Source: Elusimicrobiota bacterium (lineage in GTDB: Bacteria; Elusimicrobiota; Elusimicrobia; UBA1565; UBA9628). From it: a stretch of 64,000 nt of DNA. The stretch covers positions 3,704 through 67,703 of the forward strand of contig JACPOW010000043.1 in assembly GCA_016191335.1 (NCBI GenBank). The letters are read 5' to 3'. A program made the translations under genes and the position numbers. Shown here in pieces: positions 1 to 10,513 of this stretch (within the stretch, counting starts at the first letter, position 1; each line of letters begins with the position of its first letter). The notes under the pieces are model-generated. The model saw nothing but the letters and a program-made list of their open reading frames with translations, did not search any database and was not told the DNA's origin.

Positions 1-1583
1 AGATGCCGCCGCCACAGCTCGGCGAGGGCCTCGTCGGACAGCCCCTTCTGCAGGGCCTCCGCCTTCTCCCCGGCCTTCGCCCCGCCGAGGCTCTGCGCGA
101 GGCGCCACGCGAGCCAGGCGGACTCGGCGTCGCCGACGGCCTGATGAGCGGCACCGAGATGGTCCCAGAGGGACTCGTCGTCGGCGATGGCGCGCGCCGA
201 CGCCTGGAGCTCGACGACGGCCTCGGTGCTGCGCCCCTGCTTGAACAGGGCCCAGCCGAGCGAATCGCGGTACGCGGCGTTGCCGGGCTCGAGGGCGAGG
301 GCGCCGCGGATGAGGCCCTCGGCCTCCGTGAGCTTCAGGCCGCGGTCGGCCAGCGCGTAGCCGAGGTAGTTCAGCGCCGGCGCGTCGTCGGGCTTGCTCG
401 CGATGAGCGCGCGGAACTCCGGCTCGGCCTCGGCCATCTTGTCCATCTTCTCGAGGATGGTCGCCAGCTGCCAGCGGGCGTCGCGGTCGTCGGGCTTGAG
501 CGCGAGGACCTCGCGCAGCAGCGCCGCCGCCTCGGCGCGCTCGCCGAGGTCGTCGTGGCCCAGGGCCAGGTAGTAGGCGATGCGGTCGTCCTTCGGCCAG
601 CGCTTCCGCGCCTCCTTCAGGGTGCGCATCGCCTCCCTCACGCCGCCGGACTGGAGCTGATAGTAGCCGAGGCGGAGGTGCAAGGTCGGGTCGTCCTTGA
701 GCGCCGAGCTGTCCTTCAGGTAGCCCGCGGCCTTCGCGAAGTCGCCGGCGCGCTCCGCGTCGGAGGCGAGCCAGGCGGCGGCCGAGGCGTCGTCCGGGCG
801 CTTCTCCTTCAGACTCAGGAACTCGGCGCGCGCGGCGGCGGCGTCCCCCCGCGCGGCCTCGAGCTCGGCGACGTGCGCCCAGAGCTCGTAGTCGTCCGGG
901 ATCGAGGTCATCACCTTGCGGTACTCGGCGACGGCCGCGGCGGTGTCGTGGGAGATCTCGAACACCTGACCGAGGGTCAGGCGCACCGGGTCGGACTCCC
1001 CCTCGTCGAGGGAGATCGCGCGGCGCAGCTTCTCGACGGCGGCGGCGTAGCGGGACTCCTGCGCGTCGAGCTTGGCGAGCTCGTGGAGCACCTTCGCGGC
1101 GTGCTCCGGGTTGGCGGCGAGGAAGCGCTCGAGCATCGCGCGGGCGCGCTTGGGGTCCTTCGGCGCGATGAGCTCGGTCAGCGCCATGATCGCGTCGATG
1201 GAGGCGGCGTCGAGCTTCAGCGCCGCCTCGAACTCCTTGACCGCCTCGTCCTCCTGGCCGCGCGACCAGAACACGCGGGCCAGGATCATCGCGGACTTCC
1301 CGTCGGTGGGGGCCAGCTCGAGCCGGCGCCGGGCCCATCTCTCGGCGCGGGACCAGTCCTCGAGCTCGAGGGCCAGGTCCGCCGCCTCGCCGGCGAGGAA
1401 CGCCGAGCCGGGATCGAGCGCGAGCGCCTTCTCGTAGGCCTCGAGGGCCTCGGCGTACGCGCCGCGCCGCTCGAGCAAGGTCCCGCGCAGGTACTCCTGC
1501 TGCGCGCCCGCCGAGGCTCCGGAGCCCGACGACGAGGAGGCCGCGGCCGGGACGGCGAGGAGGAGCGCCAGGAGCAGGTTCAT
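1..1583 (-). CDS. TPR-repeat protein with N-terminal signal peptide (3' end runs off the window)
   Basis: Not in the ORF track because no stop lies in the window. My reverse translation from ATG 1583 gives MNLLLALLLAVPAAASSSSGSGA, then TPR-like helices (YAEALEAYEKALALDP, EAVKEFEAALKLD, GLIRGALALEPGNAAYRDSLGWALFKQG), and stays open to nt 1. ATGA overlap with the rimI stop. Listed + ORF 3..1625 is its antisense shadow. Confidence 0.8.
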   Translation of the reverse strand, partial: MNLLLALLLAVPAAASSSSGSGASAGAQQEYLRGTLLERRGAYAEALEAYEKALALDPGSAFLAGEAADLALELEDWSRAERWARRRLELAPTDGKSAMILARVFWSRGQEDEAVKEFEAALKLDAASIDAIMALTELIAPKDPKRARAMLERFLAANPEHAAKVLHELAKLDAQESRYAAAVEKLRRAISLDEGESDPVRLTLGQVFEISHDTAAAVAEYRKVMTSIPDDYELWAHVAELEAARGDAAAARAEFLSLKEKRPDDASAAAWLASDAERAGDFAKAAGYLKDSSALKDDPTLHLRLGYYQLQSGGVREAMRTLKEARKRWPKDDRIAYYLALGHDDLGERAEAAALLREVLALKPDDRDARWQLATILEKMDKMAEAEPEFRALIASKPDDAPALNYLGYALADRGLKLTEAEGLIRGALALEPGNAAYRDSLGWALFKQGRSTEAVVELQASARAIADDESLWDHLGAAHQAVGDAESAWLAWRLAQSLGGAKAGEKAEALQKGLSDEALAELWRRH

Positions 1584-2005
1584 GGGATGTCGAGGTCCAT
1601 CAGCACGGCGTCCGAGCCATCATAGTAGAACTTCGGCCTGCGTCCGACAACCCTCGCGCCGGCCTTTTCGTAGAAGGCGAGGGCGCGCGCGTTCGCGGCC
1701 GAGGCCTCGAAGGAGACCTTCGCGCAGCCGCGCGCCTTCGCGGCGAGGAGCAGGGCGGACATCAGCGCGCGGCCGACGCCGCCGCCGTCCGAGGCCGCCG
1801 CCAGGTCGAGGAGCCGGCAGTCGTCGCCGACGACGCGCGCCAGCGCGTAGCCGCGCTCCGGAGCGACGAGGAAGATCGAGTCGTCCCGGCCGAGCTCGTC
1901 GGCGAGCGCCGCGCGGCTCCAGCCGGCGGCGAAGGGACGCGCGCCGATCGCGGCCGCGGCGTCGATGTCCCCCGCGGCGGCCGGCCTAACCGCGAGGCCG
2001 CTCAT
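1580..2005 (-). CDS. rimI: ribosomal-protein-alanine N-acetyltransferase (GNAT)
   Basis: 141 aa GNAT. Acetyl-CoA loop SDGGGVGRALMSALLLAAKARG. Follows tsaE-tsaB as in canonical operons. Overlaps tsaB by 20 nt. Confidence 0.85.
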   Translation of the reverse strand: MSGLAVRPAAAGDIDAAAAIGARPFAAGWSRAALADELGRDDSIFLVAPERGYALARVVGDDCRLLDLAAASDGGGVGRALMSALLLAAKARGCAKVSFEASAANARALAFYEKAGARVVGRRPKFYYDGSDAVLMDLDIP

Positions 2006-2558
2006 AGCTCGCGGGCTTCAGGTAAAAGGGCTCGAACGGCGGGATCTTCTCGGCGGCGAGCGCGGCGCGGGCGACGGGCAGGAGGTCGGCGGCGGTCGTC
2101 TCGCCGTAGGAGACGGTCAGGCCGCGCTTCTCCGCCGCGGCGCGCACCCCGGGCCAATCCTTCGGCGGCGTGAACGCCGCGGCGCCGACGGGCTTCCCCT
2201 CCTTATGCTCCTGGGTGTACACCTCGTCCTTCCAGCCCGGGAGCGCGCCGAGGACCCGGTCCGCCTTCGACCGCCCCGCGGCGGCCGCCAGGCGGCTGAT
2301 CGCGAGGGCGGGAATGCCCAATTGGAACCCGGCCGCGGCGGCGAAGGACATTCCGATGCGGATGCCGGTGAACCGCCCGGGGCCGGACGCCGCGGCGATC
2401 GCGTCGAGGTCCTCCCAGCGGAGCCTGGCCTTCTTCAATAGACGCTCGACGAGAGGCAGCAGGGCTTCGTCGTGCTTCTTCGCCGCGCTCTTCAGCTCGA
2501 GGGAGCCGAGGGCGACGGTCAGGACTTCGCCCGTCGCGTCGACGGCAAGTATATTCAT
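1986..2558 (-). CDS. tsaB: tRNA t6A37 biosynthesis protein TsaB (YeaZ)
   Basis: Listed ORF 1986..2690 trimmed to ATG 2558 (MNILAVDATGEVLTVAL). ATGA overlap with the tsaE stop. Motif ASGPGRFTGIRIG. Confidence 0.85.
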   Translation of the reverse strand: MNILAVDATGEVLTVALGSLELKSAAKKHDEALLPLVERLLKKARLRWEDLDAIAAASGPGRFTGIRIGMSFAAAAGFQLGIPALAISRLAAAAGRSKADRVLGALPGWKDEVYTQEHKEGKPVGAAAFTPPKDWPGVRAAAEKRGLTVSYGETTAADLLPVARAALAAEKIPPFEPFYLKPASYERPRG

Positions 2559-3004
2559 CGGAACGATTCTAGGATTTTTCGGGAGGCGGGGCCCGCGGCC
2601 TTCATCGCCAGGCGGCGTCCGCCGGGGGCGTGGGACAAGGTCGCCTCGAGGCGGTCCTTGGGCCAGACCCCGCCGACGGCGTCGGGCCACTCCACGATCA
2701 CCGCCCCGCGCGGGTCGGCCAGCAGCTCGTCTAGGCCGAGCTCGGAGTCCTCGCCGCGCGCCACGCGGTAGAGGTCGAGGTGATGCACGGTCAGGCGCTT
2801 GCCGCGATAGACGTGGGCCAAGGCGAAGGTCGGGCTCGACACGCGTCCTTTGTACCCCGCGCCGCGGGCGAGGCCGCGCACGAGCGTGGTCTTCCCCGCG
2901 CCGAGCTCGCCGCGCAGGAGCACCAGCGCCCCGGGCTTGAGCCTGCGGCCGATGCGCTCGCCGAGCGCGATCGTCTGCTCCTCGCTCGTCAGCCTCAATC
3001 GCAC
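2555..3004 (-). CDS. tsaE: tRNA t6A37 biosynthesis ATPase TsaE (YjeE)
   Basis: C-terminal 149 aa of listed ORF 2555..3340. GTG 3004 (alternative TTG 2998) overlaps the nnrD stop. Walker A GELGAGKTT and HHLDLYRV motif. Confidence 0.85.
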   Translation of the reverse strand: MRLRLTSEEQTIALGERIGRRLKPGALVLLRGELGAGKTTLVRGLARGAGYKGRVSSPTFALAHVYRGKRLTVHHLDLYRVARGEDSELGLDELLADPRGAVIVEWPDAVGGVWPKDRLEATLSHAPGGRRLAMKAAGPASRKILESFR

Positions 3005-3915
3005 AGGGCTTTGAACGCGCGCGGCAGGTAGTCCACGAGGTCGGCCGAGGTCACGGCCCACGGCGTGAGCTCCTTCTCGGCGGCGTCGCCCGCCGCGCCG
3101 TGGAGCCAGGCGCCGAGGGCGGCGGCCTTGAAGGGCAGGTCTCCCGTGACGCGCCCGGAGGCGATCATCTGCGCCCACAGCCCGGCGACGAGGCCGGTCA
3201 GCACGTCCCCCGTGCCGCCCTTGCCGAGCCCGGGCCCGCCGGTGGCGTTGGCGACGGTCCGCGCGCCCGACGAGACCAAGGTCTTGTGCCCCTTGAGCAG
3301 GACGACGCCGCCGAGGCCGCGCGCGAGCTTCTCCGCGCACTTCTGGCGCTGGGCCTCGACCTCGCTCTTCTTCATCCCGAGCAGGCGAGCGGCCTCCGCG
3401 GGGTGCGGCGTGTAGACGCAGGGCTGCTTGCGCGCCCGGAGCATCTGCTCCACGCCGCCGCGGTCCTGCTGGGCCAAGGTGTTCAGCGCGTCGGCGTCCA
3501 CGACGGCCGCGGCCGGCACGCCGGACAGCGCCAGCAGCACGAAGCGCGCCGCGTCGGCGTGGGTCGTGATCCCGGGGCCGATGGCCACGGTCGTCACGCG
3601 TCGGGCCTTCGCGTATTCCTTCAGGAGGTCGACGCCCTCCGGGCGGAACGCTCCGGCCGAGTTCTCGGGAAGGGCCAAGGTCATCGCCGAGGGCGCCGCG
3701 CCCGCGACGGTCCCGGCGACGCCCGACGGGACCGCGACCGTCACGAGGCCCGCGCCGGAGCGCAGGGCGCCGCGCGCCGCCAGGATCGCCGCGCCGGCCA
3801 TGCCGCGGGAGCCGGCGACGACGAGGACGTGGCCGAAGATCCCCTTATGGTCCCCGGGCTCGCGCGCGACAAGGCCTTCCCTCAGCTCCGCCTTCCCGAG
3901 CGCTTTGACGCTCAC
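2995..3915 (-). CDS. nnrD: ADP-dependent NAD(P)H-hydrate dehydratase (YjeF C-terminal type)
   Basis: C-terminal 306 aa of listed ORF 2995..4620. GTG 3915 in GTGA overlap with the HNH stop. Motifs HVLVVAGSRGMAGAAILAARGALRSGAGLV and GGTGDVLTG. Confidence 0.85.
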   Translation of the reverse strand: MSVKALGKAELREGLVAREPGDHKGIFGHVLVVAGSRGMAGAAILAARGALRSGAGLVTVAVPSGVAGTVAGAAPSAMTLALPENSAGAFRPEGVDLLKEYAKARRVTTVAIGPGITTHADAARFVLLALSGVPAAAVVDADALNTLAQQDRGGVEQMLRARKQPCVYTPHPAEAARLLGMKKSEVEAQRQKCAEKLARGLGGVVLLKGHKTLVSSGARTVANATGGPGLGKGGTGDVLTGLVAGLWAQMIASGRVTGDLPFKAAALGAWLHGAAGDAAEKELTPWAVTSADLVDYLPRAFKALCD

Positions 3916-4490
3916 GCGTTCTCTTGGGACAGGAGCTTCTTCCAGCTCTCCGGGATGTGCGCGCGGGGATGCGGCACGAGGCTCCCCATCAAGGTCCAGC
4001 GCGGCCGCTCCGGCTTGCGCTTGAGCGGCATGCCCGCCTCGTCCGGCAGGCGGTCGGCCTTCTTCAGGTTGCAGGGGCGGCAGGAGGTCACGATGTTCGT
4101 CCACTCGTTGGACCCGTCGCGCGAGCGCGGGATCACGTGGTCGAGGTCGAGCTCCTCGCTCGACTTGCGCTTGCCGCAATAGGCGCACTTGTAGCGGTCG
4201 CGGGCGAAGACGTTGTGGCGCGTGAAAGCCACCTCGCGGTGCGGGATGCGGTCGTAGCGGACGAGCCGGATCACCTCGGGCACGGCGAAGCGCAGGTTCG
4301 TCGAGCTCACGAAGCCCGACGGGATCTCCACCCAGTTGGACGAGGCGGCGACCCAGGCCTCGAAATCGTAGGGGGTCAGGTCCTCGTCGAGCGCCTCCGC
4401 CAGGCCCATGTAGACGAGCGTGATCGCCCGCCGCCAATCGGCGACGGCGACGGCCCGGAAGCTCCTGTTCAGGACGAGTGTGCGGCTCAT
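3912..4490 (-). CDS. HNH endonuclease family protein
   Basis: 192 aa with YKCAYCGKRKSSEELDLDHVIPRSRDGSNEWTNIVTSCRPCNLKK (Cys4 zinc plus His-Asn-Asn HNH core). First gene of the tsa/rimI operon. Confidence 0.8.
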   Translation of the reverse strand: MSRTLVLNRSFRAVAVADWRRAITLVYMGLAEALDEDLTPYDFEAWVAASSNWVEIPSGFVSSTNLRFAVPEVIRLVRYDRIPHREVAFTRHNVFARDRYKCAYCGKRKSSEELDLDHVIPRSRDGSNEWTNIVTSCRPCNLKKADRLPDEAGMPLKRKPERPRWTLMGSLVPHPRAHIPESWKKLLSQENA

Positions 4491-4498
4491 GTCCCAAT

Positions 4499-4507
4499 AG
4501 ATTAACA
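4499..4507 (-). promoter_or_regulatory. extended -10 box TGTTAATCT, 8 nt upstream of HNH ATG (leaderless-type promoter)
   Basis: Read directly from the sequence. Part of the recurrent pattern described in findings. Confidence 0.45.
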
Positions 4508-4571
4508 GGCCAATCAGGGGAAATCAACGCCCGGATGGCGAAACTCTTTGTTTCTCGGTACAATCCGTGCC

Positions 4572-5099
4572 ATGAACGACCAAATCCGAGCCGTCCCCAC
4601 GACCGTCGCCGCGGGCGCATGCCTCTCCCTGCTCGCGATCATCTTCGGCTTCGTCATCGGCGGCGCGTTCGGAGCCGCCGAGGACGCGATCAAGAAGCGG
4701 CTCGATGTCTCCGGAACCGCCGTCCTGGAGACGGTCTATAAGGGAGACGCGGCGGCGAAGGACGCCGTCGTCAAGAAGTCGTGGTCGTACCTGATCCGGG
4801 CCCACCTCCACGGCGGGGCGATCGGGACGGCGGCGCTGGCGTCGATCGCGACCATGATCCTGCTGTGCCCGCTGGGCCCGGTCGCGCAGGGCAGCGCCTT
4901 GGCCTTCGGCGCGGGAGCGCTGATCTACGCGTCGTTCTGGATGATCGCGGGCTTCATGGCGCCGGGCATGGGCAGCACGGGAGCGGCCAAGGAACACCTG
5001 TCCTTCATCGCGATCCCGGGCGCGGGCCTGTGCCTCCTCGGCGCGTGCGGGACGCTCTTCTCCGTCGCGAAGGCCTGCTTACTTCGCCCGCGCGCCTGA
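4572..5099 (+). CDS. hypothetical polytopic membrane protein
   Basis: Track starts at TTG 4548. ATG 4572 is preferred because TACAAT 4559-4564 lies 7 nt upstream. Hydrophobic helices LSLLAIIFGFVIGGAFG, AIGTAALASIATMILL, ALIYASFWMIAGF, IPGAGLCLLGACGTLF. No family recognised. Confidence 0.6.
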   Translation: MNDQIRAVPTTVAAGACLSLLAIIFGFVIGGAFGAAEDAIKKRLDVSGTAVLETVYKGDAAAKDAVVKKSWSYLIRAHLHGGAIGTAALASIATMILLCPLGPVAQGSALAFGAGALIYASFWMIAGFMAPGMGSTGAAKEHLSFIAIPGAGLCLLGACGTLFSVAKACLLRPRA

Positions 5100-5378
5100 G
5101 GCGAGCGGGCGGGAGGCGCCCGCGTTCCAGCGCTCGAGCTTGTGCAGGTTCCGGACCAGGAGCCGCGCGACGAACAGGGGGTAGCCCTGGTCGCGGAGCT
5201 TCGCGGCGCTGAGGATCTTCATCTGGTCGACCGTCATGTCCGGGTGGGTGAAGCGCCCGTCGGCGTAGCAGTAGCTGCAGTAGGAATGGCTCTTCGCCCC
5301 GTCGGAGTAGGTGCCGCCGCCCTTGGGATCGTTCTTGAGCGGCATGCCGCAGCTCTGGCAATCGTTCTGGGTCGTCAT
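5079..5378 (-). CDS. putative zinc-ribbon domain protein
   Basis: Trimmed to ATG 5378, with GGAGG 7 nt upstream. MTTQNDCQSCGMPL...SHSYCSYCYADGRF gives two CxxC pairs. 21-nt convergent overlap with the preceding membrane gene. Confidence 0.65.
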   Translation of the reverse strand: MTTQNDCQSCGMPLKNDPKGGGTYSDGAKSHSYCSYCYADGRFTHPDMTVDQMKILSAAKLRDQGYPLFVARLLVRNLHKLERWNAGASRPLASGARAK

Positions 5379-5503
5379 ACGCATACCTCCGACGGCGGGG
5401 AACCGTCCTTGTGCTTCGACGCAACGCTCTGGCCTGTAACGCCCGGGGCGCGGCGCGCACCCACTTGAGTACAATCTGGGACGTTCCCACGGAGGCTCAC
5501 CCC

Positions 5504-6550
5504 ATGCCCGTCGACATCGAAACCGGAGTCCGCGACTACTACGGAAAGACCCTGAAGAGCGGAGCCGACCTGAAGACCGACGCCTGCTGCTCGCCGTCCG
5601 CCCTGCCGCGGCCGGTGCGCGAGGCCCTGACGAAGGTCCACGACGAGGTCACCGCCCGCTACTACGGCTGCGGCCTGACCATCCCGGGCGAGCTGAGCGG
5701 CCTGAGCGTGCTCGACCTGGGCTCGGGCTCGGGGCGGGACTGCTACATCCTGTCCCAGCTCGTCGGCGCGAAGGGTCGCGTGACGGGCGTGGACATGACC
5801 GACGAGCCGCTCGAGGTCGCCGAGCGCCACCGCGCCCATCACGCCGAGGCCTTCGGCTACGGCAACGTCGAGTTCCTCAAGGGCGACATCTCGCGCCTCG
5901 ACGCGCTCGGCCTCGCGGACGCGTCGTACGACCTGATCGTGTCCAACTGCGTCATCAACCTCGCCCGGGACAAGGCGTCCGTCCTGCGCGAGGCCCGCCG
6001 GGTGCTGAAGGAAGGCGGCGAGCTGTACTTCTCCGACGTCTACGCCGACCGGCGCGTGCCCGAGGAGCTGAGGAACGACCCGGTGCTTTACGGGGAGTGC
6101 CTGGGCGGCGCGCTGTACTGGAACGACTTCCTGGCCCTGGCCCGGCGCGCGGGCTTCGCCGACCCGCGGCTCGTCGAGTCGCGACCGCTGGCGCTCGACG
6201 CGGGGCCGATCCGGGAACGCGCCGGCCACATCGGCTTCTACTCGGCGACCTACCGCCTGTTCAAGCTCGAGGGCCTGGAGCCGGCGTGCGAGGACTACGG
6301 CCAGGCCGTGAGGTACAAGGGAACGATCGCCGACGCGCCCCGGGAGTTCCGCCTCGACGGGCATCACCGCTTCGAGGCCGGGCGGATTATGACGGTGTGC
6401 GGCAACACGTCGCTGATGCTCGAGAGGAGCCGCTTTTCGCGGCACTTCGACTTCCTCGGGGACAGGACGACGCACTTCGGCATCTTTCCCGGCTGCGGGA
6501 CGAGCCTGCCGTTCGCGGCGGAGCCGAGGAACGACGGTGCCTGCTGCTAA
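5504..6550 (+). CDS. arsM: arsenite S-adenosylmethionine methyltransferase
   Basis: Trimmed to ATG 5504 (GGAGG 5491-5495). SAM motif VLDLGSGSGRDCY. ArsM-type cysteines present (KTDACCSPS, VSNCVINL, YGECLGGALY). Confidence 0.8.
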   Translation: MPVDIETGVRDYYGKTLKSGADLKTDACCSPSALPRPVREALTKVHDEVTARYYGCGLTIPGELSGLSVLDLGSGSGRDCYILSQLVGAKGRVTGVDMTDEPLEVAERHRAHHAEAFGYGNVEFLKGDISRLDALGLADASYDLIVSNCVINLARDKASVLREARRVLKEGGELYFSDVYADRRVPEELRNDPVLYGECLGGALYWNDFLALARRAGFADPRLVESRPLALDAGPIRERAGHIGFYSATYRLFKLEGLEPACEDYGQAVRYKGTIADAPREFRLDGHHRFEAGRIMTVCGNTSLMLERSRFSRHFDFLGDRTTHFGIFPGCGTSLPFAAEPRNDGACC

Positions 6551-7427
6551 GTGGGCCGCGGCGGGGACCACCGCCCAGGGGAAGCCCCGGGCGAGGGTCG
6601 AGCCCGCTTCGCTGACGACGGTGTGGCTCAACACCGGCACGCTCTGCAACATCGAGTGCGCGCATTGCTACATCGAGTCCTCCCCGCGGAACGACCGGCT
6701 GGAATACCTGCGCCTCGCCGACATACGGCCCTTCCTCGACGAGGCCCGCGACGCGGGCGCGCGCGAGATCGGCTTCACCGGCGGGGAGCCGTTCATGAAC
6801 CCGGACCTGATCGCCATGGCGGGCGAGTGCCTCGACCGCGGCTTCGAGGCCCTCATCCTGACCAACGCGATGGCGCCGATGATGAACCGCAGGCGCGAGC
6901 TTCTCGACCTGCTCGTTCGCCGGGGCCGGGGCCTGCGCCTGCGCGTCTCCCTCGACCACCACGCCGCGGCCGCGCACGACGCCGAGCGCGGCGCGGGCGC
7001 CTTCGAGAAGACCTTGGCCGGGCTGCGCTGGCTGCTCGACGCGGGCTTCGACGCCTCCGTCGCCGGACGATCCTTCGTCGAGGAGAGCGAGGAGGCGGCG
7101 CGAGAGGGCTACCGCCGCGCGATCGGGCGCGAGGTGGAGCTGACGGTGTTCCCCGAGATGGCCGCGCCGGGCGATCTGCCCGAGATCACGACCGAGTGCT
7201 GGGGCCTCCTCGGCAAGTCGCCGGAGTCGGTGATGTGCGCCTCCTCGCGCATGGTCGTCAAGCGCCGCGGGGAGGAGCGCCCCGCCGTCGTCGCCTGCAC
7301 CTTGATCCCGCACGACCCGCGCTTCGAGCTCGGCCGGACCTTGGCCGATTCATGGCGGCCGGTCGCCCTCCAGCACCCGCACTGCGCGTCGTTCTGCGTG
7401 CTCGGCGGCGGGTCCTGCTCGCCATGA
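6537..7427 (+). CDS. arsS: radical SAM / Cys-rich domain protein, ArsS-like (arsenosugar biosynthesis type)
   Basis: GTG 6537 overlaps arsM by 14 nt. CNIECAHC matches CxxxCxxC. The Cys-rich tail HPHCASFCVLGGGSCSP resembles the rSAM/Cys-rich (DUF3641) family usually adjacent to arsM. This assignment is from memory and no HMM was run. Confidence 0.6.
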   Translation: MPAAKWAAAGTTAQGKPRARVEPASLTTVWLNTGTLCNIECAHCYIESSPRNDRLEYLRLADIRPFLDEARDAGAREIGFTGGEPFMNPDLIAMAGECLDRGFEALILTNAMAPMMNRRRELLDLLVRRGRGLRLRVSLDHHAAAAHDAERGAGAFEKTLAGLRWLLDAGFDASVAGRSFVEESEEAAREGYRRAIGREVELTVFPEMAAPGDLPEITTECWGLLGKSPESVMCASSRMVVKRRGEERPAVVACTLIPHDPRFELGRTLADSWRPVALQHPHCASFCVLGGGSCSP

Positions 7428-8092
7428 GCGTCTCCGTCGTCGTGCCCGTCCACGCGGGCGGCGCCGACTGGCTGCCGCGCATACTCGCGCGTCTCGCCGA
7501 GGTGCCCGGGCTCGAGGTGATCTGCGCGGGAGACGCCCCGCCGCCGGAGGGCTCCGGCGCGCGCTTCGTGCGCGTGGACGCCTCCTCGCGCGGCGCGCGC
7601 CTGCGGGCCGGCATCGACGCCGCATCGCATCCGACCCTCCTGCTCCATCACCCGCGCTCCCTCGTCCCGGCCGAGGGCCTGCGCTGGCTCGCGTCGCGCG
7701 CGGGCCGGGCCGGCTGGGGCGGGTTCACCCACGCCTTCGACTGGGACCACCCCCTGCTGCGCTTCACGAGTTGGTACTCGAACCGGGTGCGCGCCTCGCG
7801 CCGGGGCATCGTCTACCTGGACCACTGCGTGTTCTTCGAGAAGGCCCTGCTGACCCGGCCCATCCCGCCGGTCGAGATCTTCGAGGACACCGAGCTGTCC
7901 TTGATCCTGCGGGAGAGCGGGCTCCCGGCGCTCGCGCCCTTCGCCGTCGAGACCTCGGCGGTGCGCTTCCGCGCCAACGGCCCGTGGCGCCAGGCCCTGC
8001 TCAACCAGCGCCTGAAGCTCTCCTACCTCCTCGGCGCCTCCCACCGGCGGATGAACGCGCGCTACGAGCGCGGCCTGGGCCTGAACAGCTAA
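7424..8092 (+). CDS. glycosyltransferase family 2-like protein (rSAM-associated transferase type)
   Basis: C-terminal 222 aa of listed ORF 6551..8092. ATG 7424 in ATGA overlap with the arsS stop. VSVVVPVHAGG..., RGARLRAGIDAA, LLLHHPRSLVP, YLDHCVFFEK, FEDTELSLILRESG, ETSAVRFRANGPWRQALLNQ follow the pattern I recall for rSAM/selenodomain-associated transferase 2. Confidence 0.55.
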   Translation: MSVSVVVPVHAGGADWLPRILARLAEVPGLEVICAGDAPPPEGSGARFVRVDASSRGARLRAGIDAASHPTLLLHHPRSLVPAEGLRWLASRAGRAGWGGFTHAFDWDHPLLRFTSWYSNRVRASRRGIVYLDHCVFFEKALLTRPIPPVEIFEDTELSLILRESGLPALAPFAVETSAVRFRANGPWRQALLNQRLKLSYLLGASHRRMNARYERGLGLNS

Positions 8093-8101
8093 ACTGTCGG
8101 G

Positions 8102-10513
<2,412 letters not shown>

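Follow-up and report, generated by a model that had tools for sequence, protein, structure and literature searches.

The closest described counterpart of the system analyzed here is the cyanobacterial pairing of ArsM, an As(III) S-adenosylmethionine (SAM) methyltransferase, with ArsS (TIGR04167), a radical SAM enzyme with a Cys/Sec-rich DUF3641 domain that adenosylates dimethylarsenite (PMC13598754) to give 5'-deoxy-5'-dimethylarsinoyl-adenosine (DDMAA). By comparative genomics, NCBIfam already groups ArsM and ArsS with two further families as an arsenosugar set, in which TIGR04283 (formerly rSAM/selenodomain-associated transferase 2) is labeled "arsenosugar biosynthesis glycosyltransferase" and TIGR04282 is likewise named an arsenosugar biosynthesis transferase. 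The literature that we searched characterizes only ArsM, ArsS, and ArsL, and the steps after ArsS carry no experimental assignment there. Here we describe a locus of an Elusimicrobiota bacterium (assembly GCA_016191335.1) within the window, that is, the whole stretch of 64,000 nucleotides that was analyzed (contig JACPOW010000043.1, positions 3,704 to 67,703), in which arsM is followed by a radical SAM gene and by a gene whose product resembles glycosyltransferases (GTs) of the GT-A fold, hereafter the GT-like gene. We favor, with moderate confidence, the view that these genes form a translationally coupled three-gene operon for a complex organoarsenical, an arsenosugar-type variant that employs a divergent sister radical SAM enzyme and a divergent sister transferase. 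What is new here is that neither the radical SAM enzyme nor the transferase is of a family with a curated model; each belongs to a sister family that has none.

All three genes lie on the forward strand. The arsM gene (5504-6550, +) runs from ATG to TAA and encodes 348 residues with a Cys-Cys terminus, and a Shine-Dalgarno-like GGAGG read off the sequence (5491-5495, +) stands 8 nt upstream of its ATG. The radical SAM gene (6537-7427, +; GTG to TGA, 296 aa) overlaps arsM by 14 nt, and a GAGGA ribosome-binding site, also read off the sequence, is located within the 3' end of arsM (6526-6530, +), 6 nt before the GTG. The GT-like gene (7424-8092, +; ATG to TAA, 222 aa) in turn overlaps the radical SAM gene in an ATGA. 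These coordinates confirm the arrangement of three coupled genes that the initial annotation had described. The GTG start is supported because residues 5-19 of the radical SAM protein are conserved in homologs that begin M-P-x-x-(A)-K-W/F, and the start position of the GT-like gene is common to its homologs. The GC content at third codon positions is of the coding type in the cassette frames (approximately 0.9, in a genome of 72% GC), and each of the three genes has a ratio of nonsynonymous to synonymous substitution rates (dN/dS) within 0.10-0.30 when compared with four relatives.

As a coupled unit, the trio moves from one genomic context to another: relatives (L036, L039, and G182) have the genes in an identical order although their surroundings differ. 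Among 201 Elusimicrobiota genomes, the radical SAM and GT-like genes are confined to the same three genomes and are adjacent in each, and arsM adjoins the pair in two of the three. The source metagenome-assembled genome (MAG) comprises 3.66 Mb and is 94% complete, and the nearest homologs of the window are from named Elusimicrobiota.

Comparison of the three proteins with known families

The product of the first gene is, by homology, a genuine As(III) methyltransferase of the ordinary long type, as the initial annotation had held. It matches the solved ArsM of C. reinhardtii (5evj) with 362 bits over residues 7-345, a full-length match that includes the C-terminal domain, and it scores 299 bits against CmArsM (4fr0) and 119 bits against Pfam Methyltransf_31. 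The SAM-binding glycine-rich motif VLDLGSGSGRD is present, and Cys28/29, 56, 149, and 199 align with the conserved cysteines of 5evj, which we take to bind arsenic from what is established for CmArsM. It is the sole ArsM of the whole genome, and its closest relatives outside the Elusimicrobiota are ordinary gammaproteobacterial arsenite methyltransferases with 62-66% identity. Unlike the ArsM of the cyanobacterial pair, the cassette protein does not match the arsenosugar-type model NF038099 (81.7 bits against a cut-off of 400). It also stays below the cut-off of the arsenite methyltransferase subfamily NF008823 (181 bits against 263), a model of 272 positions that spans the N-terminal two thirds only, such that the ArsM assignment rests on the structural homologs. 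The Cys-Cys ending is also found in ArsM domains that are fused to true ArsS.

The second protein has a typical radical SAM core, CNIECAHCY, in which C37, C41, and C44 form the CxxxCxxC motif (Pfam Radical_SAM, PF04055, 64 bits), and a C-terminal tail, HPHCASFCVLGGGSC, that carries C283, C287, and C294. In an alignment of 58 sequences of its family, 64 columns are invariant, including C221, C234, C254, and the tail HPHCAxFCVLGGxSC. This protein had been taken for ArsS, an assignment that does not hold. Its score to TIGR04167 is 66.8 bits, covers model positions 3-151 only, and does not reach the cut-off of 300, true ArsS proteins of the same phylum score 361-432 bits, and no match to DUF3641 (PF12345) is found in it. 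In addition, a phylogeny, which had been named beforehand as the test able to refute the assignment, places it outside the ArsS clade: the radical SAM family and ArsS form separate clades that are joined with 84/90 support in a tree that has a small outgroup sample and includes no Rv1681-family members, and the ArsS stem measures 2.2 substitutions per site. The likeness to the cyanobacterial pair lies elsewhere, in an arsM beside a CxxxCxxC radical SAM gene, in homologous cores (in an hhalign comparison of the family with six true ArsS proteins of this phylum, the N-terminal 180 columns, and only these, align with 99% probability and 23% identity), in the same accessory genes, and in a three-Cys tail of equal span. 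The tail reads HCx3Cx6C in the radical SAM family and HCx2Cx7C in ArsS, both spanning 11 residues, and in the radical SAM protein it ends in G-x-S-C; the resemblance is that of a short motif without statistical support. Its last cysteine occupies the position of the selenocysteine found in some TIGR04167 proteins, where the motif is GxxU (PMC13188914). A role of this tail in binding arsenic is made plausible by ArsL, whose terminal Cys motif binds As(III) (10.1101/2024.02.01.577332). The protein is thus not an ArsS but a distant sister of it, in a family without a curated model that is the nearest ArsS relative sampled.

Other characterized families are no closer. The highest curated match of the radical SAM protein is NF049973, the Rv1681 family, the function of which is unknown; the score of 104 bits falls well short of the 380-bit cut-off, with the core alone covered, and the protein is the best match in its genome to both the ArsS and the Rv1681 models. 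The arsinothricin pair, ArsL (NF040542) and ArsM, resembles the cassette in that the partner of ArsM is a radical SAM enzyme with a Cys tail at its C-terminus for binding As(III), putatively so in our case; it differs in that the radical SAM gene gives no match to the ArsL model at E <= 0.01, that its tail, CASFCVLGGGSC, has no RCCLKC, that no arsQ permease accompanies it, and that the partner genes of its relatives suggest adenosyl or ribosyl processing, not an amino-acid product. Given the lack of a match to NF040542, ArsL-type chemistry was rejected. The AlphaFold2 model of the radical SAM protein (predicted local distance difference test score, pLDDT, of 88) has BlsE, SkfB, SuiB, and MoaA as its nearest solved folds; a search of solved structures by sequence found no ArsS structure.

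The third protein matches no Pfam family, and its 85 bits to TIGR04283 are below the cut-off of 182; the GT that adjoins a radical SAM family member in Sphingomonas scores 230 bits. Its AlphaFold2 model (pLDDT 93.4) has a GT-A fold, with GT2 enzymes as the top Foldseek matches, and its family aligns with true TIGR04283 proteins over the full length (hhalign 99.95%, E 1.8e-37, 218 columns). As with TIGR04283, the gene stands directly downstream of a radical SAM gene. We refer to this family by its motif, LLHHPRS; by profile comparison it is a full-length divergent sister of TIGR04283 with no curated model of its own. In 69 aligned members 34 columns are invariant, including Arg78, D133, H134, E154, and D155, and R56, D133, E154-D155, S178, and G186 are common to both families; dN/dS of the GT-like protein against its relatives is 0.20-0.30.

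The differences from TIGR04283 concern the nucleotide and metal sites. The initial annotation had placed the DxD site at CAGDAP or YLDH, which belong to other motifs; the true equivalent is LHHPRS at residues 74-79, where the invariant L-H-A-D-T of TIGR04283 is changed to L-H-H-P-R-S (H-A-D-T to H-P-R-S) and the invariant Arg78 occupies the place of the metal-binding Asp. The N-terminal DGGSxD of TIGR04283 is replaced by AGDAPPP in the window protein, and AGDAPPP or a deletion is found across the Elusimicrobiota subclade; proteobacterial members of the LLHHPRS family retain an N-terminal VDxxSTDGT and a PF00535 match. Judged from these motifs, the Elusimicrobiota subclade has lost the nucleotide-binding motif. 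A second difference is the lack of TIGR04282 (DUF2064), of which we find no match in the three Elusimicrobiota carriers of the GT-like gene (G000, G072, and G182); in the Alphaproteobacteria, by contrast, TIGR04282 is present in 83 of the 87 genomes that have a TIGR04283-like gene. A second TIGR04283-like gene of the source genome (C40, 147 bits), between DUF1015 and dus, was set aside as unrelated to the cassette.

Genes 2 and 3 are related to the radical SAM enzyme and the transferase that are associated with arsenosugars. The proposal that the third gene represents an uncharacterized step stands in part: the protein does diverge from TIGR04283, yet TIGR04283 and TIGR04282 have already been named as arsenosugar transferases.

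Occurrence and neighbors of the radical SAM family

The radical SAM family is present in at least 591 species genomes, mostly of Alphaproteobacteria, with some in Gammaproteobacteria, Gemmatimonadota, Latescibacterota, and Elusimicrobiota. We surveyed the neighborhoods of 80 loci. A TIGR04283-type GT is found beside the radical SAM gene in 13-17 loci, DUF2064/TIGR04282 in 11, a DedA/VTT protein together with a pyridine-nucleotide-disulfide oxidoreductase (Pyr_redox) in 9-10, ArsM in 8 (four Elusimicrobiota loci and three proteobacterial lineages), an OlsE-like hydroxylase in 7, and 5'-methylthioadenosine (MTA) phosphorylase in 2. True ArsS is flanked by, or fused to, equivalent DedA, oxidoreductase, DUF2064, GT, and ArsM genes. 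De novo clustering of neighbors gave no universal partner, and zwf/pgl/pgi, which adjoin the radical SAM gene in Rhodobacterales, were dismissed as plain synteny.

The same partners emerge from co-occurrence. In a sample of 201 alphaproteobacterial species, the radical SAM family is present in 62, and TIGR04283-like and TIGR04282-like genes are both present in 60 of these 62; among the 139 non-carriers, the former is found in 27 and the latter in 25 (Fisher 3e-27, not tree-corrected). True ArsS is present in three of the 201, all of which lack the radical SAM family, hold both transferases, and have no ArsM, and no genome sampled encodes both the radical SAM family and ArsS. Given these shared partners and the lack of co-occurrence with ArsS in the sample, the radical SAM family looks like the equivalent of ArsS within a common accessory system. 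A long ArsM is found in six of the 201 species, and all six carry the radical SAM family (p ~7e-4), although the tie of the whole accessory system to the organism's own ArsM is loose. A divergent NF038099-type ArsM was sought in carriers without ArsM and exceeded the cut-off in 0 of 80 genomes. A further 24 Alphaproteobacteria have a TIGR04283-like gene, mostly with a TIGR04282-like one, and neither the radical SAM family nor true ArsS; these genomes are either incomplete or use yet another partner enzyme.

The fullest cluster is that of Sphingomonas glaciei and S. humi (L017 and L043), which contains msrB, msrA, the radical SAM gene, a true TIGR04283 gene, MTA phosphorylase, DUF1499, an OlsE-like fatty-acid hydroxylase, and TIGR04282; a fusion of DedA and an oxidoreductase lies upstream. 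Homologs of several of these genes are found elsewhere in the source genome, namely the hydroxylase (54% identity, C65), DUF1499 (C60), and MTA phosphorylase (C88).

Variant arrangements occur within the Elusimicrobiota. On a 3.1-Mb contig of uncultured Elusimicrobia (L018/L038), arsM and the radical SAM gene are followed by TfoX_N instead of the GT-like gene, and a phosphate transporter of the PHO4/PiT type, a possible route of arsenate entry, precedes arsM. A second locus (L040) in the MAG that holds the L039 trio has an open reading frame of 335 aa (P0064) in which residues 1-161 of ArsM run on into residues 75-295 of the radical SAM protein; apparently a second copy of the cassette was fused here by a deletion, and no GT-like gene comes after it. 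Four other Elusimicrobiota genomes encode fusion proteins of 840-870 aa (L116-L119; G112:C18, G200:C2, G130:C18, and G078:C21), in which an N-terminal domain is followed by a radical SAM/SPASM-like part, whose 64-79 bits to TIGR04167 do not reach the cut-off, and by an ArsM domain at the C-terminus ending in CCxxxCC; a DUF2064 gene directly follows the fusion gene in L119. These fusions are a third radical SAM lineage tied to ArsM.

Proposed function and alternative explanations

The product of the cassette would most likely be an adenosyl- or ribosyl-type organoarsenical formed by an ArsS-like route, for which we infer the following chemistry. First, ArsM would methylate As(III) to methyl- and dimethylarsenite, as suggested by its strong homology to solved and characterized ArsMs. 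Second, the radical SAM enzyme would cleave SAM at its CxxxCxxC cluster in the manner of ArsS, and the 5'-deoxyadenosyl radical would be added to trivalent arsenic held by C283, C287, and C294, giving a 5'-deoxy-5'-arsinoyl-adenosine; this step is suggested by the distant homology to ArsS, by the partner genes that both families have, and by the tail motif they have in common. Third, and most speculatively, the GT-A protein would act on the ribosyl part, with its acceptor-side acidic residues D133, E154, and D155 retained. Since Arg78 replaces the DxD Asp, the nucleotide-binding motif is missing, and the genome has no DUF2064 partner, the protein probably does not use a nucleoside-diphosphate sugar with a metal. 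Our best guess is a metal-independent transfer of a 5-deoxy-5-arsinoyl-ribosyl group, the donor of which could be a ribose-1-phosphate generated by MTA phosphorylase, a homolog of which is encoded in the genome, or the nucleoside directly. An analogous order of steps is known from hopanoids, in which adenosyl addition by HpnH (adenosyl-hopene transferase) is followed by adenine removal by HpnG (nucleoside phosphorylase) and a GT2 step by HpnI; the families and the substrate differ, and the match of the radical SAM family to HpnH is weak (E 6e-9, for a Sphingomonas homolog).

Several observations weigh against this reading. The radical SAM protein appears to fail every curated ArsS test, the generic N-terminal 180 columns alone align, and the C-terminal halves of the radical SAM family and ArsS do not align significantly (hhalign probability 0.4%). 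Homology of the C-terminal domains was accordingly rejected by hhalign on those parts alone, and the resemblance of the tail to that of ArsS is therefore one of a short motif only. No functional partner adjoins the radical SAM gene in about 50 of the 80 loci, the co-occurrence statistics in the alphaproteobacterial sample are not corrected for phylogeny, and ArsM of either type is absent from 56 of the 62 alphaproteobacterial carriers. Within the Elusimicrobiota, one genome (G072) has the radical SAM and GT-like pair without ArsM, and a near-complete relative (G406) lacks the GT-like gene but has arsM and the radical SAM gene; hence the link among the three steps is not an obligate one.

A first alternative, in our view an unlikely one, is that the radical SAM and GT-A proteins form a general module that natively acts on something other than arsenic. 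Some other soft nucleophile, or an alkene, would accept the 5'-deoxyadenosyl radical and then undergo ribosyl processing in the manner of HpnH and HpnG, with arsM recruited alongside in a few lineages or placed there for co-regulation. Such a substrate may apply given that ArsM is missing from most carriers of the family: the six alphaproteobacterial carriers with an ArsM all have the long type and none the NF038099 type, arsenic genes are not near most radical SAM loci, the pair in G072 occurs without ArsM, and even the three alphaproteobacterial genomes with true ArsS have no ArsM. What speaks for arsenic is, first, the 14-nt overlap, which amounts to translational coupling of arsM with the radical SAM gene in this cassette. 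Moreover, no fewer than four lineages have, independently, an arsM that is adjacent to members of the family (Elusimicrobiota, Novosphingobium L082, L095, and Ponticaulis L104), every long-ArsM genome of the alphaproteobacterial sample carries the family, and the partner set matches that around the experimentally characterized ArsS. Finally, the terminal Cys triad would suit thiol-bound As(III), as in the ArsL tail (10.1101/2024.02.01.577332).

We consider it improbable that the radical SAM enzyme instead forms another kind of arsenic-carbon bond, for example with a different radical derived from SAM or from the substrate, to yield a new organoarsenical with neither adenosine nor ribose, the GT-A protein then modifying the product or a carrier. 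The long stem that separates the family from ArsS, the different C-terminal domain, and a top curated match to the uncharacterized Rv1681 family would all fit such chemistry, and ArsL exemplifies a CxxxCxxC enzyme that cleaves SAM differently (10.1101/2024.02.01.577332). The ArsL model and the RCCLKC tail are absent, however, and linkage to MTA phosphorylase at two loci, a CofC-like nucleotidyltransferase, and a GT-A transferase are better suited to the processing of an adenosyl or ribosyl adduct. Equally improbable is that the GT-A-fold protein of the Elusimicrobiota subclade is a non-catalytic partner of the radical SAM enzyme, whether a scaffold or a carrier of substrate or product: although the DxD Asp and the N-terminal nucleotide-binding motif are both gone, Pfam gives no match, and the gene is absent from G406, purifying selection on it is as strong as on its neighbors, and the invariance of Arg78 and of so many other columns, with D133, H134, E154, and D155 at positions conserved in TIGR04283, is more in keeping with an altered than with a dead active site.

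Returning to the arsenosugar-type operon that we favor, a very common radical SAM family without a curated model appears to stand in for ArsS. If this family makes arsenic-carbon bonds, the count of bacteria capable of forming complex organoarsenicals would rise sharply, and surveys that score arsM and TIGR04167 alone would miss carriers. A broader generalization, which we regard as possible but hold only tentatively, is that the radical SAM family together with TIGR04283/TIGR04282 or an LLHHPRS protein constitutes the chief way in which bacteria make organo-metalloid compounds of the adenosyl or ribosyl type; roughly one in three of the sampled alphaproteobacterial species has the family. Were this so, heterotrophic bacteria would be a large unrecognized source of arsenosugar-like compounds, or else the native substrate would be other than arsenic, and the LLHHPRS protein would be a new kind of metal-independent GT-A enzyme with a non-nucleotide ribosyl donor. 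The cassette is a compact test system for the bacterial synthesis of complex organic arsenic compounds: with three coupled genes and no DUF2064 it is the smallest version found, and thus a convenient construct for heterologous tests.

Genomic surroundings

The genes that neighbor the cassette are unrelated to it (TPR, GNAT, HNH, a Zn-ribbon gene, hrpB, and glmS). Downstream, hrpB (window 8093-10513), which encodes an ATP-dependent helicase, starts with a GTG at 8102, a mere 9 nt past the GT-like gene's stop codon, and the gap contains no terminator. This gene order is repeated in the close relative L036 and not in L039, L120, or L121, and a conserved linkage of hrpB was rejected since it is seen in that close relative only. 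An Rfam scan of 4900-8400 detected no riboswitch or other known RNA upstream of or within the cassette.

That no arsR, arsB, or acr3 is nearby, as the initial annotation had noted, is correct for the adjoining genes, none of which is an ars resistance gene, and ArsB was not found in the genome; yet the genome does have a classical arsR-acr3 locus on a separate contig (C133). Within positions 1-10000 of that contig (L122), after arsR (4658-4984, minus strand) comes acr3, which scores 448 bits to TIGR00832 and lies within an unusually long open frame of 500 codons; the two are adjoined by an MFS transporter and a generic methyltransferase.

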